This document shows, one piece after another, positions 9,434 through 15,992 of a DNA stretch of 64,000 nucleotides; within the stretch, counting starts at the first letter, position 1; every line of letters starts with the position of its first letter. The DNA is from Escherichia coli (GTDB lineage: Bacteria > Pseudomonadota > Gammaproteobacteria > Enterobacterales > Enterobacteriaceae). The stretch lies in NCBI RefSeq assembly GCF_003018255.1, contig NZ_CP027440.1; one strand, 5' to 3'. Below the pieces are notes generated by a model. That model was given only the letters and a program-made list of their open reading frames with translations, made no database searches and was not told the origin of the DNA. A program made the translations under genes and the position numbers.

Positions 9434-10726
9434 ATGATGAACACGGAAGGTAATAACGATAACAAACCCCTCGGTCTATGGAACGTCGTTTCCATCGGTA
9501 TTGGGGCAATGGTGGGGGCGGGGATCTTCGCGCTGCTGGGGCAGGCTGCGTTGCTAATGGAAGCCTCGACCTGGGTCGCCTTTGCTTTTGGCGGTATTGT
9601 GGCGATGTTTTCCGGTTATGCCTATGCGCGCCTAGGGGCGAGCTATCCCAGCAATGGCGGTATTATCGACTTCTTTCGTCGCGGATTAGGCAACGGCGTC
9701 TTTTCGCTGGCACTCTCGTTATTGTACCTGTTGACGCTGGCGGTGAGCATCGCCATGGTCGCCCGTGCTTTTGGCGCTTATGCCGTGCAGTTTTTGCATG
9801 AAGGCAGTCAGGAGGAGCACCTTATATTGCTCTACGCGTTGGGGATCATTGCGGTGATGACGCTTTTCAACTCCTTAAGCAACCATGCGGTAGGGCGGCT
9901 GGAAGTGATCCTCGTCGGCATTAAAATGATGATCCTGTTATTGCTGATCATTGCCGGTGTCTGGTCGCTGCAACCGGCGCATATTTCCGTCTCTGCGCCC
10001 CCCAGCTCCGGTGCGTTCTTCTCCTGTATCGGGATAACCTTCCTTGCCTATGCGGGCTTTGGCATGATGGCGAACGCGGCGGATAAAGTGAAAGATCCGC
10101 AGGTCATTATGCCACGGGCGTTTCTGGTGGCGATTGGCGTTACCACGTTGCTTTATATCTCGCTGGCGCTGGTTTTGCTTAGCGATGTATCGGCATTAGA
10201 GTTAGAAAAATATGCCGATACCGCCGTAGCGCAGGCTGCTTCTCCGCTGCTCGGGCATGTGGGTTATGTGATCGTCGTCATCGGCGCTTTACTGGCGACG
10301 GCTTCAGCCATAAACGCGAACCTGTTCGCCGTGTTTAACATCATGGACAACATGGGCAGCGAACGCGAACTGCCGAAGCTAATGAATAAATCCCTGTGGC
10401 GGCAGAGTACCTGGGGCAACATCATTGTCGTGGTGCTGATTATGCTGATGACGGCGGCGCTGAATTTAGGCTCACTCGCCAGCGTTGCCAGCGCCACCTT
10501 TTTGATCTGCTATCTGGCGGTGTTTGTGGTGGCGATCCGCCTGCGTCATGATATTCACGCCTCGTTGCCGATTCTTATCGTTGGTACGTTGGTTATGTTG
10601 TTGGTGATCGTTGGCTTTATCTACAGTCTCTGGTCCCAGGGCAGCCGTGCGCTGATATGGATTATTGGCGCACTCTTACTCAGCCTTATTGTGGCAATGG
10701 TCATGAAGCGCAATAAAACTGTATAA
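9434..10726 (+). CDS. ybaT: APC-family amino-acid transporter
   Basis: 430-aa polytopic ORF with its start 3 nt after the glsA stop. Matches YbaT. Confidence 0.9.
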   Translation: MMNTEGNNDNKPLGLWNVVSIGIGAMVGAGIFALLGQAALLMEASTWVAFAFGGIVAMFSGYAYARLGASYPSNGGIIDFFRRGLGNGVFSLALSLLYLLTLAVSIAMVARAFGAYAVQFLHEGSQEEHLILLYALGIIAVMTLFNSLSNHAVGRLEVILVGIKMMILLLLIIAGVWSLQPAHISVSAPPSSGAFFSCIGITFLAYAGFGMMANAADKVKDPQVIMPRAFLVAIGVTTLLYISLALVLLSDVSALELEKYADTAVAQAASPLLGHVGYVIVVIGALLATASAINANLFAVFNIMDNMGSERELPKLMNKSLWRQSTWGNIIVVVLIMLMTAALNLGSLASVASATFLICYLAVFVVAIRLRHDIHASLPILIVGTLVMLLVIVGFIYSLWSQGSRALIWIIGALLLSLIVAMVMKRNKTV

Positions 10727-10850
10727 CATCTCTCTGTGCGCAGTACCTCCTGTATTATTGTGGTGGCGGTCGATATTCGCACTGGCAAAAAAACGTGCTT
10801 GAATATCTGTTGAAACCCTTTAACAAAGCACAGGAGGCGTTGCGCGAACG

Positions 10851-11258
10851 ATGAACATTAGCGATGTAGCAAAAATTACCGGCCTGACCAGCAAAGCCAT
10901 TCGCTTCTATGAAGAGAAGGGGCTGGTGACGCCGCCGATGCGCAGCGAAAACGGTTATCGCACCTACACGCAGCAGCATCTCAACGAACTGACCTTACTG
11001 CGCCAGGCACGCCAGGTGGGCTTTAACCTGGAGGAGAGCGGCGAACTGGTGAATCTGTTTAACGATCCGCAGCGTCACAGCGCCGACGTCAAACGTCGTA
11101 CGCTGGAGAAAGTGGCGGAGATCGAACAGCATATCGAAGAACTGCAATCCATGCGTAACCAGCTGCTGGCGCTGGCGAATGCCTGCCCCGGTGATGACAG
11201 CGCCGACTGCCCGATTATCGAAAATCTCTCCGGCTGCTGTCATCATCGGGCGGGGTGA
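10851..11258 (+). CDS. cueR: MerR-family Cu(I)-responsive regulator
   Basis: 135-aa ORF with an N-terminal MerR HTH ([21 protein letters not shown]) and the C-terminal CPGDDSADC metal loop. Confidence 0.95.
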
Positions 11259-11989
11259 TTAAGGCTTGCGAAAATAGTCGTCCATTATTTTCGTCAGCTC
11301 CGGACGTTCCCCGTCATCATTGATGGCAAAATCCAGAAAAAAAGCATCTGCTTGCGGCGTTCGGTTTTGCGCCATCAACCGGAAGGTGAGGGGGCCTGAC
11401 CAGGTTTCGGATGGGCTGATGTGCTTATCAGGGCCGAAACTCTCCCATGCGTTGGGCGGTAATGTTTTGCACGCGGTGAGTTTTGGTATGTGGTATTGCA
11501 GCTCTGTTTTGTGCAGACATTCCCCGCCAGGAAATACCAGGGTTTGTTGCTCATCATTAAAATGGGTTGCCGTGCTGAGCACCAGTGTTTTGAGCGGTCG
11601 CCCTTCCAGCGCGGCGGCAGTAGCCTTATGGTGTCCGTCGAGCAGAACGCAGAGATAGGAATCAGGGAGATACCAGGCCAGAGCGCGGGCGATTCCAGTT
11701 TTCGAGAGCAGACAAAAACCGGGCGGCTCCCTGTTCACCCTCCGCAAAACCGCTGTAGACAAATTCCGCACAGGTAGGGCAACCAGCCTCGGACCAGAAA
11801 CGTATTAACGGGACATCCTTGCCAGCAGAGCGAATGGATAAGACCGTGCGAGTGCGGATCGTAAATCACACATTGACGCAGAAATCCTTTCCCGGACTTC
11901 ACCGAAAAAATGACGCCCGCAGCGGTATTTTTCAGCAGACGTACTTCAGGTTTTCGAAAGGGGAAAAAGCATGGCCACTCCTTAGCCAA
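11259..11989 (-). pseudogene. Island gene, apparently frameshifted; C-terminal part has a ParB/Srx-like DGHHK signature
   Basis: A 170-aa ORF (11259-11771, GTG start) and an 84-aa ORF (11735-11989, TTG start) overlap in different frames. The third frame reads protein-like across the overlap (IRFWSEAGCPTCAEFVYSGFAEGEQGAARFLSALENW) but has no start codon. A T5 run sits at the second junction. Confidence 0.4.
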
Positions 11990-12060
11990 AATTTCAGTTC
12001 CCTGAACTGTGCCAGAAAATTACGCTGGTGACTATTGCTCTGGAAATGGAAACAGTGTCC

Positions 12061-12267
12061 TTACCCATTAATCCCCGTTTGTACCGAAAGAATATGTTGC
12101 AAACTTTCTACCATAATGCGCCCCGACTGAAATAAGCCTTCCTGGATTTCATTGTTAACATTCACAGCGTGAACCAGGGAGGCTAATAACACCACTTGCA
12201 AGAAGGCAAAAATAAACGCACCGATAATCATAATATGCGTCAGGGGGATTTTCCTTTGCTCCTTCAT
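12061..12267 (-). CDS. Small single-pass membrane protein (island)
   Basis: 68-aa ORF with a 4-nt ATGA overlap onto the upstream lipoprotein gene. TM segment IMIIGAFIFAFLQVVLLASLV. Confidence 0.5.
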   Translation of the reverse strand: MKEQRKIPLTHIMIIGAFIFAFLQVVLLASLVHAVNVNNEIQEGLFQSGRIMVESLQHILSVQTGING

Positions 12268-12686
12268 TTTAAATAACCCACAAACTGGCCTTCTTTCATT
12301 AAGGCGACTTTTCCTGTGTGATGATAAACAATGACATTATACAGACCCGACTGATAAACCGTGGCATCGGCATTATCTTCATCTATGGCACATAATGAAT
12401 CATTGAGATAAGCAAAATTCTTACTACTCATTCTAAAGGTCATGCCAAATCCTTTATAAATGGCTTTTTTTGCCGCCTGGGCATGTTGTGCGGCTTCTGC
12501 ATTTTTAAATGCCTGCGCTTCAGAAGCACTTAAAATAGCCGTCTGGCGCTGCTGTTCTGCGAGATAACAGGTGTCATGGCTGACGCCCTGCGCCTGACAA
12601 TCTGCGATGCGGGAAGCGGGTGAGCTACAGCCAGCCAGTAATATAACCGCCAGCAGGGAAAAGGATTTAATGGAGCTATTCATCAT
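12264..12686 (-). CDS. Lipoprotein (island), immediately downstream of the adhesin gene
   Basis: 140-aa ORF with signal peptide and lipobox LLAGC (Cys20). Confidence 0.7.
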   Translation of the reverse strand: MMNSSIKSFSLLAVILLAGCSSPASRIADCQAQGVSHDTCYLAEQQRQTAILSASEAQAFKNAEAAQHAQAAKKAIYKGFGMTFRMSSKNFAYLNDSLCAIDEDNADATVYQSGLYNVIVYHHTGKVALMKEGQFVGYLK

Positions 12687-12771
12687 TGTTAACCTTAAAT
12701 AATGTGCGAATTAATGAAGAGGTGAAACCCGGCAAGCTTCCTTGCTCTTATTTATATTGAGGATTGAAATA

Positions 12772-13788
12772 TTAGAACGAATATCCTACGCCGACACCTG
12801 CGCCGAAATCAGATTGCGTATCCGCAGAAATACCGGCTTTAAGTACCGTATGCGTTCCGGCATTAAAAGATGTTCCGACAGACACCGCAGATTCACCGTT
12901 GAAGGTTCCCGCTCCCGCTGACACCATCATCACGTCACCGGTTTTAACCTGTGGTTGTGAGGCGATAGCGATGGCAGATGCAGTTCCCGCATTGGCTTCT
13001 TTACGGTTGTCCTCAACTTCGTTTTTCAGCGAACTGTAATGGTTATTGAGCGTGTTAATTTGTTGGCTGTTATCTGCGACCCGTTTTTGCGTGTTGCTTA
13101 ACTGTTGCTGCGTTTGTGCGGAATCTTGTCTCAGACTTTCAATTTGCTCATGTGCCTGGACAGACTTCTGCGCCAGACTTTGCATTTGTTTATCGTATTG
13201 AGCCCTTTCTTTTTGCTGTTGTGCTGCCACATCGGTTGTCAGTGCATTCATTTTCTGCCCTTGTTCCGTGGTAGTGCGCTGATTAGCCTCATTTTGAGCC
13301 GCCAGTCTGGCATTAATCATCTCCTGATAATGCGCAGTATTTTGCGTATCTCCAGTCGCGGCGAGCGTTTTTTGTGTGGCTACGATCTGCGCCTGTTGCT
13401 CTGTAATTTGCGTTTGCTGGGCATCAGTTACCGCAGACTGTCGGGCGTTGATCATGCTCTGATAACGGGCAGGTGTCTGTGTATCACCTGTAGCGGCAAC
13501 GGTTTTTTGTCCTGCGTCAGGATCTGTCTGGACAGTGGGAGTCTGAGTGGTATCAGGTGTTTCAGAAGGGATGTAGTGATGTTCAGTCAAATAGGTATAC
13601 GCAGCGGGGCTGTTGTCTGTGCGTTCTAAAAAGCGGGTAATCTTCTGCTCAATCTCCGATTGCGACATGCCAGAGTTAATGGCTGAAAGCTCTGTTGCCG
13701 CCGCTTCAATGGTATCACCAGCTAAAACAACAGGGCTGGATGTTGCTGAAATTATGAGTGCCAGTAAAGCTACGTTTACAGTTTTCAT
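12772..13788 (-). CDS. Short trimeric autotransporter adhesin (YadA-like C-terminal anchor, Gln-rich coiled-coil passenger)
   Basis: 338-aa ORF with a signal peptide (..VVLA|GD). The C-terminus ANAGTASAIAIASQPQ...AGAGTFNGESAVSVGTSF...GVGVGYSF is a typical YadA anchor. A 45-aa tandem repeat spans aa 94-183. No head or neck repeats were seen. Confidence 0.85.
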   Translation of the reverse strand: MKTVNVALLALIISATSSPVVLAGDTIEAAATELSAINSGMSQSEIEQKITRFLERTDNSPAAYTYLTEHHYIPSETPDTTQTPTVQTDPDAGQKTVAATGDTQTPARYQSMINARQSAVTDAQQTQITEQQAQIVATQKTLAATGDTQNTAHYQEMINARLAAQNEANQRTTTEQGQKMNALTTDVAAQQQKERAQYDKQMQSLAQKSVQAHEQIESLRQDSAQTQQQLSNTQKRVADNSQQINTLNNHYSSLKNEVEDNRKEANAGTASAIAIASQPQVKTGDVMMVSAGAGTFNGESAVSVGTSFNAGTHTVLKAGISADTQSDFGAGVGVGYSF

Positions 13789-13821
13789 TCATTTTCTCTT
13801 GTTCAAAATAAGTCGCATTAA

Positions 13822-13970
13822 TGTTTCTATAAGAAACAAATAATATTATTTTAAGAAATAAACTGCGTTGCAATTTAATCGAAATCTACGCCGCCATTTG
13901 TGTGATGTAAAGCGCATTTTTGTCTGGTGTAAGCGTAAACACCACCAATAAGAAACAAAAAATGTTTCTT
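13822..13970. promoter_or_regulatory. AT-rich adhesin promoter region with two palindromes built on the half-site AGAAACA
   Basis: TGTTTCT-ATA-AGAAACA (13822-13838) and AAGAAACA-AAAAA-TGTTTCTT (13950-13970). Both lie in the 365-bp gap between the divergent adhesin and HTH-like genes. Confidence 0.35.
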
Positions 13971-14154
13971 ATATAAATAAAATCGAAAATCATTTTGTGC
14001 TCTTTCAATGTAAAAAAGAGTAAAGACTTGTTTTGATAAGCGAAATAAATTCTGTTTCTGGACTAAACGTGAAGCGGTTCCTGATGTGTGCTAAAATGCG
14101 TTTCTTTGATAAATCTCAATTTTTAAGAGGTTTACGCCAGGCAGGAAAATTTAA

Positions 14155-14517
14155 ATGAATGAATTTGAGAAGATTTTTAATGAAATGAATCTGGACCGGG
14201 CATTGTTACCGATCCTTTTTCGTTCGAACCGGTCGACAGTGTGGAAGTATTTAAGCGGCGATAGTACGGCTCCTGCCTCTGCCATGTCGCTGATCATGCT
14301 GTTGCAGTTGATCCAGAAACGAAACCCCGATCTGTTAGCCGAATGGTTAACGCTTTCTGATTTCACCATTCCGCCAGAAGTTTACCTGGACCAACCTGAT
14401 TACTGGAAAGGGTGGGTGTATACCCAACACAAGGTCAATAAAAACGTCCTGGAATATCTAAAAAAACACTATCCGGATGAAGACCAAAAAAGTATGGGTA
14501 AAGGCCGGGAAGAGTAA
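14155..14517 (+). CDS. Hypothetical protein with a possible HTH (island), divergent from the adhesin operon
   Basis: 120-aa ORF. The segment ILFRSNRSTVWKYLSGDS resembles an HTH. No family was recognised. Confidence 0.5.
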   Translation: MNEFEKIFNEMNLDRALLPILFRSNRSTVWKYLSGDSTAPASAMSLIMLLQLIQKRNPDLLAEWLTLSDFTIPPEVYLDQPDYWKGWVYTQHKVNKNVLEYLKKHYPDEDQKSMGKGREE

Positions 14518-14539
14518 TTTTGCCTCTACTCGGCTATAT

Positions 14540-14625
14540 GCCGGATGCGGCGCAAGCGCCTTATCTGGCCTACGATTCGGGCATATTTTGTAGGCATGAT
14601 AAGACGCGCCAGCGTCGCATCAGGC
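14540..14625. repeat. BIME: two inverted REP elements
   Basis: GCCGGATGCGGCGCAAGCGCCTTATCTGGCCTAC (14540-14573) and GTAGGCATGATAAGACGCGCCAGCGTCGCATCAGGC (14590-14625). The second overlaps the ybbJ stop. Confidence 0.7.
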
Positions 14626-15078
14626 GATGACCGCACGGATAATCAGCGTTATCCCTTCTATCGCAATCACCTCAACATGCGTACCTGCACTGAGATCCTC
14701 GCTGGCGCTGACAGGCCATGAACTGTCACCGACGCGCATATGACCACGCCCGTTGACCAGCGGAGATTCCAGAACAAAACGTCGGCCAATCAACTGCTGC
14801 CCGCGCTGGTTTAAATGACTGTCGCTGTGCTTTTGTTCGCGCACCCGCCGCGACAACCATTTCCACCACAGCCAGGCGGCGAGCAGCGTCAGGACGGCAA
14901 ACATTACCCCTTGCCACTCCCAACCCAGCGGCAGCAACCAGACCACCAGACCGGTAATCACCGCTGCCACGCCGCTCCACAACAGATAACCATTGCCGCC
15001 CAACATCTCGGCTGCCAGCAGCAAACCGCCGAGACTTAGCCAGAAAATATGTGGATGAACGACCATTAACTCCATCAT
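14620..15078 (-). CDS. ybbJ: NfeD-family inner-membrane protein (partner of QmcA)
   Basis: 152-aa ORF matching YbbJ; overlaps the qmcA stop. Confidence 0.9.
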
Positions 15079-15992
15079 GGCTGAGTCCGTTTGTTGGCGC
15101 TGTCTTTCACCAGCTCAGCAATCCCGGCAATCGACCCCATCAGGCTGCTGGCCTCTAATGGCATCATCACCACTTTGCTGTTACTGGACGAACCGATCTG
15201 CTGTAACGCTTCGGTGTATTTCTGTGCGACGAAGTAGTTCACCGCCTGAATATCACCGGAGGCAATGGCTTCAGACACCATTTTAGTGGCGCGGGCTTCT
15301 GCTTCAGCGGAACGTTCACGCGCTTCAGCCTGTAAAAACGCCGACTGACGTTCGCCTTCCGCTTTCAGGATTTGCGACTGTTTTTCACCTTCGGCTTTGA
15401 GGATTTCCGCCTGACGGATCCCTTCCGCTTCAAGGATGTAAGCGCGTTTGGTACGTTCCGCTTTCATCTGCGCGTTCATTGAAGAGATAAGCTCTGCCGG
15501 TGGGCGCACGTCGCGAATTTCAATACGGGTGACTTTAATCCCCCACGGGTTGGTGGCCTCATCGACAATACGCAGCAGGCGTGAGTTGATGCTGTCGCGC
15601 TGAGAGAGCATTTCGTCAAGTTCCATTGAACCCAGCACGGTACGGATGTTAGTCATGGTCAGGTTGATGATCGCCAGCTCCAGATTGCTGACTTCATAAG
15701 CCGCGCGCGGCGCGTCAATCACCTGAATAAAGCACACGGCGTCGATGGTAACGTTGGCGTTATCTTTCGAGATAACTTCCTGGGAAGGGATATCGAGCAC
15801 TTGCTCCATCATATTGATCTTGCGACCAATGCGATCCATAAACGGCACCACCAGACTGAGCCCCGGCTGTAACGTTTTGGTATAGCGACCAAAACGTTCT
15901 ACTGTCCACTGATAGCCCTGCGGCACGATTTTGACGCCCGCGCCGACAATGACCAGCGCGACAAAAATGAGAATCGGGATAAAGATAAGCAT
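15075..15992 (-). CDS. qmcA: SPFH/stomatin-family protein
   Basis: 305-aa ORF with an N-terminal TM and a PHB domain. Matches QmcA (YbbK). Confidence 0.95.

Follow-up and report, generated by a model that had tools for sequence, protein, structure and literature searches.

The DNA inserted between cueR and ybbJ in Escherichia coli contig NZ_CP027440.1, analyzed here within a stretch of 64,000 nucleotides (the window), is composite: its left part (11259-11972) is a dead, unrelated gene, and its right part (about 12054-14619) is O-island 29 (OI-29), which in enterohemorrhagic E. coli (EHEC) O157:H7 EDL933 measures 2,643 bp and contains z0638, z0639 (gmrA) and z0640 (Yang et al., 2018, PMC5826968). 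The island was already known, and its genes had been deleted and tested in 2018, which was overlooked by the original prediction made on this DNA. We regard it as probable that the insert consists of a dead 407-aa gene beside a conserved enterobacterial four-gene cell-envelope module, and that the whole is an old recombining polymorphism. The head-less trimeric autotransporter encoded by z0639 would be exported by Sec, inserted by the β-barrel assembly machinery (BAM) and shown on the surface as a trimeric stalk. The lipoprotein z0638 would be a conserved partner of it in the periplasm or outer membrane, with a part in its biogenesis, stability or anchoring, a 68-aa inner-membrane protein may be a lineage-specific accessory of the lipoprotein, and z0640 may be a local regulator acting at hexamers of the control region; the helper and regulator roles are those that we infer. 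The locus itself would be an old presence/absence polymorphism at a convergent junction, shuffled by homologous recombination and eroded by deletion. Judged from sequence, the published mechanism of GmrA conflicts with the protein that the gene encodes, and the accessory genes appear as a conserved, uncharacterized partnership.

By every sequence hallmark, the 338-aa protein is predicted to be an outer-membrane trimeric adhesin. Residues 279-338, at the extreme end of the protein, match the Pfam family YadA_anchor (PF03895) over model positions 1-60 of 60, with 45 bits against a cut-off of 22.7 and an E-value of 1.1e-11, so that the check by hidden Markov model (HMM) suggested in the original prediction came out well above threshold. 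Anchors of this type contribute four beta-strands per protomer. The C-terminus is aromatic (...GVGYSF), and a search of PDB sequences aligned residues 244-338 to the solved anchors of AtaA (9vnj, 1.5e-6) and Hia. The RefSeq product is "YadA family autotransporter adhesin", and residues 108-338 match PHROG 17426, "adhesin", at 4e-21. The signal peptide (residues 1-23), judged by inspection, is MKTVNVALLALIISATSSPVVLA, cleaved between VLA and GD; it has Lys2 and a hydrophobic core of 17 residues, with V-x-A at positions -3 and -1, and the pattern is kept in all Escherichia alleles (SAFA/GD). It is followed by a small N-domain, a P/T linker, 45-aa stalk repeats, a putative coiled coil and the anchor. 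Weak matches to coiled-coil proteins such as SMC, ATG16 and JetC were obtained, and residues 244-278 align to the helical part of the solved anchors. No head, neck, Hep_Hag or HIM family of Pfam was found at E <= 0.1, and the passenger consists of the N-domain, of about 50 aa, and the stalk. YadA-type head and neck domains are common in trimeric autotransporters, without being obligatory. In Pfam and NCBIfam, no DNA-binding family was matched, only coiled-coil-type noise.

The Escherichia alleles of z0639 range from 338 to 594 aa, with near-invariant signal peptide, N-domain and anchor, the stalk indels being modules of 100-250 aa. Two alleles (L005, 2620-4053; L006, 2588-4390) are started internally by the NCBI Prokaryotic Genome Annotation Pipeline (PGAP), which gives them 349 aa; the full ORFs (open reading frames) have 471 and 594 aa (MN/MKTVKLSLL...) and include signal peptide and N-domain. 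The 349-aa lengths and the longer intergenic regions that they imply were rejected, since the full ORFs have signal peptides and, once these two start-site errors are mended, the control region is of about 366 bp in all Escherichia alleles. A prophage origin was also rejected, there being no phage genes nearby; above noise, only the autotransporter matches PHROGs, the lipoprotein having one weak match (E 0.004) to a functionally uncharacterized family. The same holds for anti-phage defence, as none of the small genes matched PADLOC and the autotransporter gave only coiled-coil noise.

The original prediction had described an operon of the 338-aa autotransporter, a 140-aa lipoprotein and a 68-aa ORF with a single transmembrane (TM) segment; the arrangement, the 85-nt gap and the ATGA overlap are all confirmed (Table 1), and the hairpin in the gap between the first two genes is weak and lacks a T-tract. 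Mature z0638 is a protein of 13 kDa, with Ser at +2; its conserved Cys30 and Cys40 are followed by a long helix and by a beta domain of eight strands (model with predicted local distance difference test, pLDDT, above 90). Among aligned homologues whose lipobox cysteine is preserved, position +2 is taken by Ser or Thr, once by Val, and Asp does not occur there; by the +2 rule, z0638 is therefore predicted to be sorted to the outer membrane. A helper of the SadB type, for which a search had been proposed, is ruled out by sequence, fold, +2 residue and gene order: z0638 matches neither SadB nor YajI in sequence or in fold, and its predicted membrane and gene order differ too. A relation to TraV (NCBIfam, E 0.003, 18 bits against a cut-off of 44.75) was also discarded, as only signal peptide, lipobox and first helix are covered.

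Other forms and settings of this family were seen elsewhere. Aeromonas, Pseudomonas, Buttiauxella and Atlantibacter (L063-L083 and others) encode 63-69-aa lipoproteins that correspond only to the N-terminal Cys-x9-Cys helical part of the lipoprotein family, with no beta domain and no autotransporter nearby. On plasmid pC3_2 of Pantoea sp. C3 (L049, 4976-7438) a 626-aa protein is encoded 133 nt upstream of a lipoprotein homologue; it has a signal peptide, a highly repetitive coiled-coil stalk and a Gly-rich tail, with no YadA anchor, and possibly represents an autotransporter relative that is devoid of one.

The 68-aa protein has homologues in no more than 14 loci (Escherichia, Pseudocitrobacter, bacterium G50 and metagenomes). 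In all of them but one, which is a frameshift-ridden assembly, the ORF overlaps the stop of the lipoprotein frame by 4 nt, and the arrangement indicates that it is translationally coupled to the lipoprotein. Comparison of Escherichia species gave ratios of nonsynonymous to synonymous divergence (dN/dS) of 0.02-0.09 (lipoprotein), 0.01-0.07 (z0640) and 0.04-0.45 (68-aa ORF). These low values, reflecting strong purifying selection, indicate that all three are real genes.

The z0640 protein belongs to a family with only 23 representatives among 1.8 billion proteins. Its remote relatives match MqsA_antitoxin (2.4e-5), Xre-like-HTH (3.7e-5) and HTH_3 (2.5e-4), and it is probably a Cro/XRE-type helix-turn-helix (HTH) regulator. 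A toxin-antitoxin reading was rejected, as there is no toxin partner and the weak MqsA match covers the HTH part only. Homologues of z0640 lie divergently upstream of the autotransporter gene in every informative context (Escherichia, Rahnella, Yersinia, Ewingella and metagenomes). The control region between the two genes is AT-rich, as had been predicted, and 366 rather than 365 bp long. It contains the hexamer GTTTCT/AGAAAC six times against 0.27 expected, a number reached by 0 of 2000 dinucleotide shuffles; promoter and terminator scans gave nothing above shuffle expectation. In an alignment of 10 sequences from several genera the half-sites form invariant columns, and the enrichment is found only beside close z0640 orthologues, in three different chromosomal contexts. 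The six hexamers are candidate operators. In Serratia (L044 and L046; 6384-9620) the z0640 homologue and the lipoprotein gene are divergent neighbours with no autotransporter between them, directly upstream of qmcA-ybbJ-cueR, and a conserved non-hydrophobic 71-aa ORF begins 6 nt after the lipoprotein gene.

Table 1. Features of the insert at the cueR/ybbJ junction and of its flanks (positions in the window).
Feature	Position	Strand	Evidence and remarks
cueR, left flank	10851-11258	+	ORF list, RefSeq annotation, K-12 comparison; its stop codon is the left edge of the extra DNA
Module A, remnant of 407-aa orphan gene	11259-11972	-	PGAP "frameshifted"; not part of the adhesin module
68-aa single-pass membrane protein (predicted)	12061-12267	-	TM at about residues 11-33 behind a basic N-terminus, with some 35 residues following it; ATG overlaps the lipoprotein TGA (ATGA)
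z0638, 140-aa lipoprotein (predicted)	12264-12686	-	Lipobox LLAG/CSS; 85 nt downstream of the autotransporter gene
z0639, 338-aa head-less trimeric autotransporter (predicted)	12772-13788	-	Pfam YadA_anchor, anchor alignments, RefSeq product
Stalk repeat, 135 nt (45 aa), tandem-like	13286-13510	-	KTxAATGDxQ...YQxMINAR; repeat search (70% identity), protein alignment
Divergent control region	13789-14154		366 bp, about 33% GC; GTTTCT/AGAAAC at 13823, 13832, 13951, 13964, 14054, 14100
Palindrome GTTTCT-ATA-AGAAAC, candidate operator	13823-13837		35-49 nt before the autotransporter ATG; a -10-like hexamer closely precedes it
Inverted pair AGAAAC-N7-GTTTCT, candidate operator	13951-13969		Alignment, enrichment, repeat search
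z0640, 120 aa, putative local regulator	14155-14517	+	Very small orphan family; probable N-terminal Cro/XRE-type HTH
BIME (bacterial interspersed mosaic element)	14537-14619		REP (repetitive extragenic palindrome) at 14540-14573 and a second, inverted REP up to 14619, its tail supplying the ybbJ stop codon
ybbJ (NfeD family), right flank	14620-15078	-	ORF list, RefSeq annotation, K-12 comparison

The partnership of lipoprotein and autotransporter extends beyond E. coli. The lipoprotein family is confined to Enterobacterales, and its co-occurrence with the adhesin was assessed by iterative HMMs over all ORFs of 75 species loci, 44 species loci being scored. Such co-occurrence in other genomes had been named beforehand as a test able to refute the original prediction; an anchor-bearing ORF was found directly upstream of the lipoprotein gene, on the same strand and with a gap of 0-330 nt, in 25 of the 44 lipoprotein species loci, at several unrelated sites (Escherichia spp., Pseudocitrobacter, Phytobacter, Enterobacter spp., Rahnella spp., Yersinia aleksiciae, Ewingella, Lelliottia and several metagenome-assembled genomes, MAGs). 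The autotransporter-lipoprotein module is present in at least three different chromosomal contexts. In a neighbour-joining tree of the lipoprotein, linked and solitary members are interleaved and linkage occurs in at least five clades, from which the linkage looks ancestral and the autotransporter appears to have been repeatedly lost. In Pseudocitrobacter faecalis (L008, 1090-9936), at an unrelated site beside a 628-aa large serine recombinase, we observed two tandem autotransporter genes (633 and 588 aa, the anchor match of the second being weak), followed by a 171-aa lipoprotein with an inserted segment and by a 64-aa small ORF; this copy is possibly mobile.

Several observations weigh against the reading of a four-gene envelope module. 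The lipoprotein is found without an autotransporter in the other 19 of the 44 loci, which were checked by eye (Scandinavium, Klebsiella, Raoultella, Pseudescherichia, Dryocola, Erwinia, Serratia and Pantoea). The 68-aa gene, expected by the original prediction to accompany the adhesin in other genomes, is restricted to the Escherichia/Pseudocitrobacter lineage and missing from most autotransporter-lipoprotein pairs. The HTH assignment of z0640 rests on sub-threshold matches: the divergent position of the predicted HTH-like ORF stood, and the Cro/XRE type is probable, but the best match of the window protein itself is MqsA_antitoxin with E 0.082 (Pfam), the better matches are found only in remote relatives, and even the remote relative P0090 scores 24.9 bits for MqsA_antitoxin, 24.4 for Xre-like-HTH (cut-off 25.8), 21.4 for HTH_3 (cut-off 23) and 21.5 for HTH_26 (cut-off 22). 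The AF2 model of z0640 is poor (pLDDT 58) and gave no Foldseek match. Finally, deletion of the whole island left adherence to HeLa and Caco-2 cells unchanged, and deletion of z0638 or z0640 had no motility phenotype (PMC5826968).

The solitary copies in 19 species show that the lipoprotein has some autonomous role, and they speak for a different account, in which lipoprotein and 68-aa protein would be an autonomous envelope factor merely co-regulated with the adhesin, for example a small-barrel inhibitor or binder of the MliC/PliC/ACP kind. The Serratia lipoprotein, which lies directly beside the z0640 homologue with no autotransporter, also fits this account. Solitary copies, however, do not refute a helper role, because SadB, itself a proven helper, likewise has a paralogue that stands alone, YajI. 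A profile search of PDB sequences with z0638 returned nothing, and no match to Pfam MliC was found. Moreover, where the autotransporter is present, gene order and close spacing are invariant across at least five clades and several sites. An autonomous factor is thus possible, but we consider it rather doubtful.

As regards the origin of the insert, cueR and ybbJ stop codons abut in K-12 with 0 nt between them, and so 11259-14619 is wholly extra DNA, BIME included. The absence of the insert from K-12, its start right after the cueR stop and the BIME at its far end, all claimed by the original prediction, were borne out, the extra DNA running through the BIME to 14619. The annotation used was the RefSeq/PGAP one of E. 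coli strain JNE23-011, which is 100% identical to the window over this stretch; it contains no integrase, tRNA or att site within the insert, and a repeat search revealed no flanking direct repeats, in agreement with what had been noted from the letters. The boundaries are the cueR stop codon on one side and a REP on the other. The BIME segment matches a median of 8 places per genome in a search of E. coli genomes. The description of an AT-rich 3.3-kb island holds for the right part (about 12000-14500), which has low GC, and fails for 11259-11900, where GC is 53-56% (55% over module A as a whole) and the DNA is a separate decayed gene. Likewise, the five to six extra ORFs that had been listed all exist, but those of 170 and 84 aa are pseudogene fragments.

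These two ORFs derive from the left part of the insert (module A), where the window copy of the gene is internally deleted and annotated as frameshifted. The intact gene, of 1224 bp, is found in E. coli strain A37, E. whittamii and Escherichia sp. E1V33, and the window copy lacks two internal segments, corresponding to positions 138-362 and about 667-930 of the intact gene. The 407-aa protein matched no family of Pfam, PADLOC or PHROG. In many E. coli strains module A is present without the adhesin module (module B), and mostly so. An intrinsic terminator considered at 11988-11972 is probably none, as it overlaps the ribosome-binding site and start of the module A gene. The decay of this gene shows that erosion is still ongoing at the locus.

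Across 5,426 complete E. coli genomes, the junction occurs in four states, as disclosed by the comparison of the cueR-ybbJ region that the original prediction had called for: empty (as in K-12), module A only, module B only, and A plus B, as in the window. Module A is present in 965 genomes. The genes of module B travel together, with lipoprotein and small ORF in 1416 genomes (26% thus carry the OI-29 part), autotransporter anchor in 1381 and z0640 in 1415; the A/B junction arrangement was found in 164. All copies are single and chromosomal. Outside E. coli, intact A and B occupy the same site in E. whittamii and Escherichia sp. E1V33, and E. ruysiae has B only. The module adjoins qmcA-ybbJ-cueR in bacterium G50, Pseudocitrobacter, Serratia and Pectobacterium; in bacterium G50, Pseudocitrobacter cyperus and two metagenomic contigs it lies on the other side of qmcA-ybbJ, and in Serratia z0640 and lipoprotein are upstream of qmcA. 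The synonymous divergence (dS) of the window from the O157-type haplotype amounts to 0.31 in the lipoprotein gene and 0.17 in cueR and ybbJ, and to only 0.07-0.08 in qmcA and ybaT. More generally, between haplotypes dS peaks at the junction, with 0.17-0.27 for cueR and ybbJ as compared to 0.07-0.10 for qmcA and ybaT in the outer regions 9434-10726 and 15075-15992, and this peak is linked diversity around a presence/absence polymorphism.

Synteny, the local dS peak and the lack of mobility genes point to an old polymorphic locus and not to four recent acquisitions, and "acquisition" is probably the wrong frame for module B. The contrary view is that of a horizontally acquired island, gained several times independently by pathogenic lineages; four gains were proposed by Yang et al. 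Its patchy presence, in about a quarter of the genomes and not in K-12, its low GC over 12000-14500 and the related module beside a large serine recombinase in P. faecalis speak for such an island. Against this, the boundaries bear none of the marks looked for (integrase, tRNA, att or direct repeats), the module occupies this very site in three further Escherichia species and lies at a distance of up to about 1.5 kb in other genera, and the alleles are as divergent as between species. Old haplotypes that are exchanged by homologous recombination and repeatedly deleted leave just such a dS peak, covering the island and the flanks next to it, and the decayed module A shows such erosion in progress. 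We therefore consider repeated acquisition unlikely, and the locus clearly illustrates how an "island" may be better accounted for by an old presence/absence polymorphism, recombining at a convergent gene junction, than by recent acquisition.

Other variation was noticed at the edges of the insert. In the last 8 codons of ybbJ (14620-14650; L004, 1909-1945) about 12 of 30 nt differ, K-12 having ...HIRAVSS* and island-bearing strains ...IIRAVIA*; since in the latter the ybbJ stop lies inside the REP tail, the indel breakpoint seems to fall within the ybbJ 3' end. On the other side, a 98-bp remnant of a HlyD-type type I secretion adaptor (10757-10854; PGAP pseudogene, "frameshifted; incomplete") overlaps the cueR start, where Shiga toxin-producing E. 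coli (STEC) and some other strains have intact genes of a type I secretion system (T1SS), presumably with the RTX island there too. The T1SS variation at the cueR start, together with the junction insert, indicates that both sides of cueR are indel hotspots.

The identity of the 338-aa ORF with gmrA follows from the published primers, which match the window with 0-1 mismatch and fit exactly around each ORF (primer table of PMC5826968). The gmrA deletion arms map to 12734-12771 and 13789-13827, exactly bracketing the 338-aa ORF, and arms for z0640 and z0638 map to 14117-14154 and 12226-12263, respectively. The z0638 deletion also removes the start codon of the unannotated 68-aa ORF (12264-12267), and the arm for the whole OI-29 deletion begins 9 nt inside ybbJ (14620-14628), removing its last two codons and stop; both may confound the phenotypes. 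One gmrA cloning primer encodes MKTVNVAL, the start of the signal peptide, and the other ends at ...GVGYSF, so that the His6 tag precedes the signal peptide and 3xFLAG is joined to the barrel's terminal Phe.

GmrA was reported as a cytoplasmic activator of fliA (PMC5826968), and a more speculative possibility builds on two independent hints that connect this autotransporter family with transcription. Instead of a plain adhesin operon, the module might be a surface-to-gene signalling device, in which the cytoplasm is informed of fibre export or occupancy and adhesin display is coupled to flagellar genes. This idea draws on the published decrease of fliA, fliC and motility upon deletion of the autotransporter gene, and on the precursors of Rahnella/Ewingella type, which have an HTH-like presequence under purifying selection. 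In Rahnella (L030, L032, L034, L038, L039, L040), Ewingella (L054), a MAG (L052) and, in degenerate form, Yersinia aleksiciae (L041), the autotransporter ORFs begin with a conserved segment of about 42 codons, MKAQxTxRNTQIIxAYIAGNxNKxELARYFGVSASTIRRVLAG, which immediately precedes the hydrophobic core and the AxA cleavage site. It is matched by about 20 HTH families of Pfam at E 2e-4 to 0.1, and dN/dS values between Rahnella species are 0.06-0.35; when the Rahnella N-terminal extension was used in a word-index search, only one relative was recovered. In some genera the signal might be carried by the released HTH-bearing presequence, and in Escherichia by the lipoprotein and the 68-aa inner-membrane protein, or by envelope-stress pathways. 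We hold a signalling function of this kind to be quite improbable.

The published mechanism, according to which the 338-aa protein acts as a cytoplasmic DNA-binding regulator of fliA, is supported by experiments: deletion lowers, and complementation restores, motility, fliC, motA and flagella, the phenotype is the same in eight strains, and binding to PfliA was shown by electrophoretic mobility shift assay with His6-GmrA and by chromatin immunoprecipitation with quantitative PCR on GmrA-3xFLAG, negative controls included (PMC5826968). The unchanged adherence of the island deletion is also in line with it, and GmrA is listed as an EHEC flagellar transcription factor in reviews up to 2024. It is nevertheless very unlikely that this is what the protein does, given its N-terminal signal peptide, its C-terminal YadA barrel above the Pfam cut-off and aligned to solved trimeric autotransporter anchors, the lack of any detected DNA-binding family, a stalk-length polymorphism typical of surface fibres, the operon-like setting with lipoprotein and membrane protein, and tags placed where they may be expected to block export and assembly, so that a glutamine-rich coiled-coil protein would stay in the cytoplasm. 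Within the island, z0640 is the actual HTH candidate. If the autotransporter reading is right, the mechanism behind the gmrA motility phenotype needs to be re-examined, and z0640 is an overlooked DNA-binding candidate.

In the searchable literature no description was found of the lipoprotein, of the 68-aa protein, of the circuit of z0640 and hexamers, or of the conserved four-gene architecture. The closest known system is OI-29 of EDL933 itself, which has the same genes in the same order and at the same site between the cueR and ybbJ stops, with module B proteins about 95-99% identical to those of the window. The window has in addition the decayed 407-aa gene between cueR and the island, the 68-aa ORF is missing from the EDL933 annotation, and the cytoplasmic DNA-binding role given to z0639 is not supported by the window sequence. 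Short head-less or prophage-borne trimeric autotransporters (PHROG 17426; Eib- and DsrA-type proteins) resemble z0639 in size, stalk-plus-anchor architecture and stalk repeat polymorphism. By contrast, z0639 has no phage context, and the PDB sequence search matched only anchor domains, not EibD.

Among systems with a dedicated partner, AtaA-TpgA of Acinetobacter is similar to OI-29 in that a periplasmic partner is encoded beside a trimeric autotransporter, and the z0639 anchor aligns to that of AtaA; TpgA, however, has BamE-like and OmpA-type peptidoglycan-binding domains, neither of which was detected in z0638 by Pfam or NCBIfam. RadD of Fusobacterium is a monomeric type Va autotransporter from a distant phylum. 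The radD operon resembles OI-29, since the autotransporter adhesin is co-transcribed with a small lipoprotein, FAD-I, and with the small, uncharacterized proteins RapA and RapB (PMC7023056). SadA-SadB of Salmonella and EhaG/UpaG-SadB of E. coli are, like OI-29, enterobacterial operons of a trimeric autotransporter and a small lipoprotein (PMC3953254). SadB shares with z0638 a helical N-terminal part and a beta-rich C-domain, and has adhesin-less lineages and a solitary paralogue as well. On the other hand, SadB has Asp at +2 (inner-membrane retention) and its gene is directly upstream, whereas z0638 has Ser and its gene is downstream; SadB and YajI combine a coiled coil with a MATH-like C-domain, as compared to the predicted 8-stranded small barrel of z0638; and SadA is a giant with head domains, whereas z0639 is head-less. 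In a 2026 survey, SadB and TpgA are the only partners described as aiding secretion of trimeric autotransporters, with no further candidates; since a YadA head domain was required, that survey could not see head-less proteins. The lipoprotein z0638 may thus be a third candidate partner, with a fold unrelated to SadB and TpgA, conserved across many Enterobacterales and testable in E. coli.

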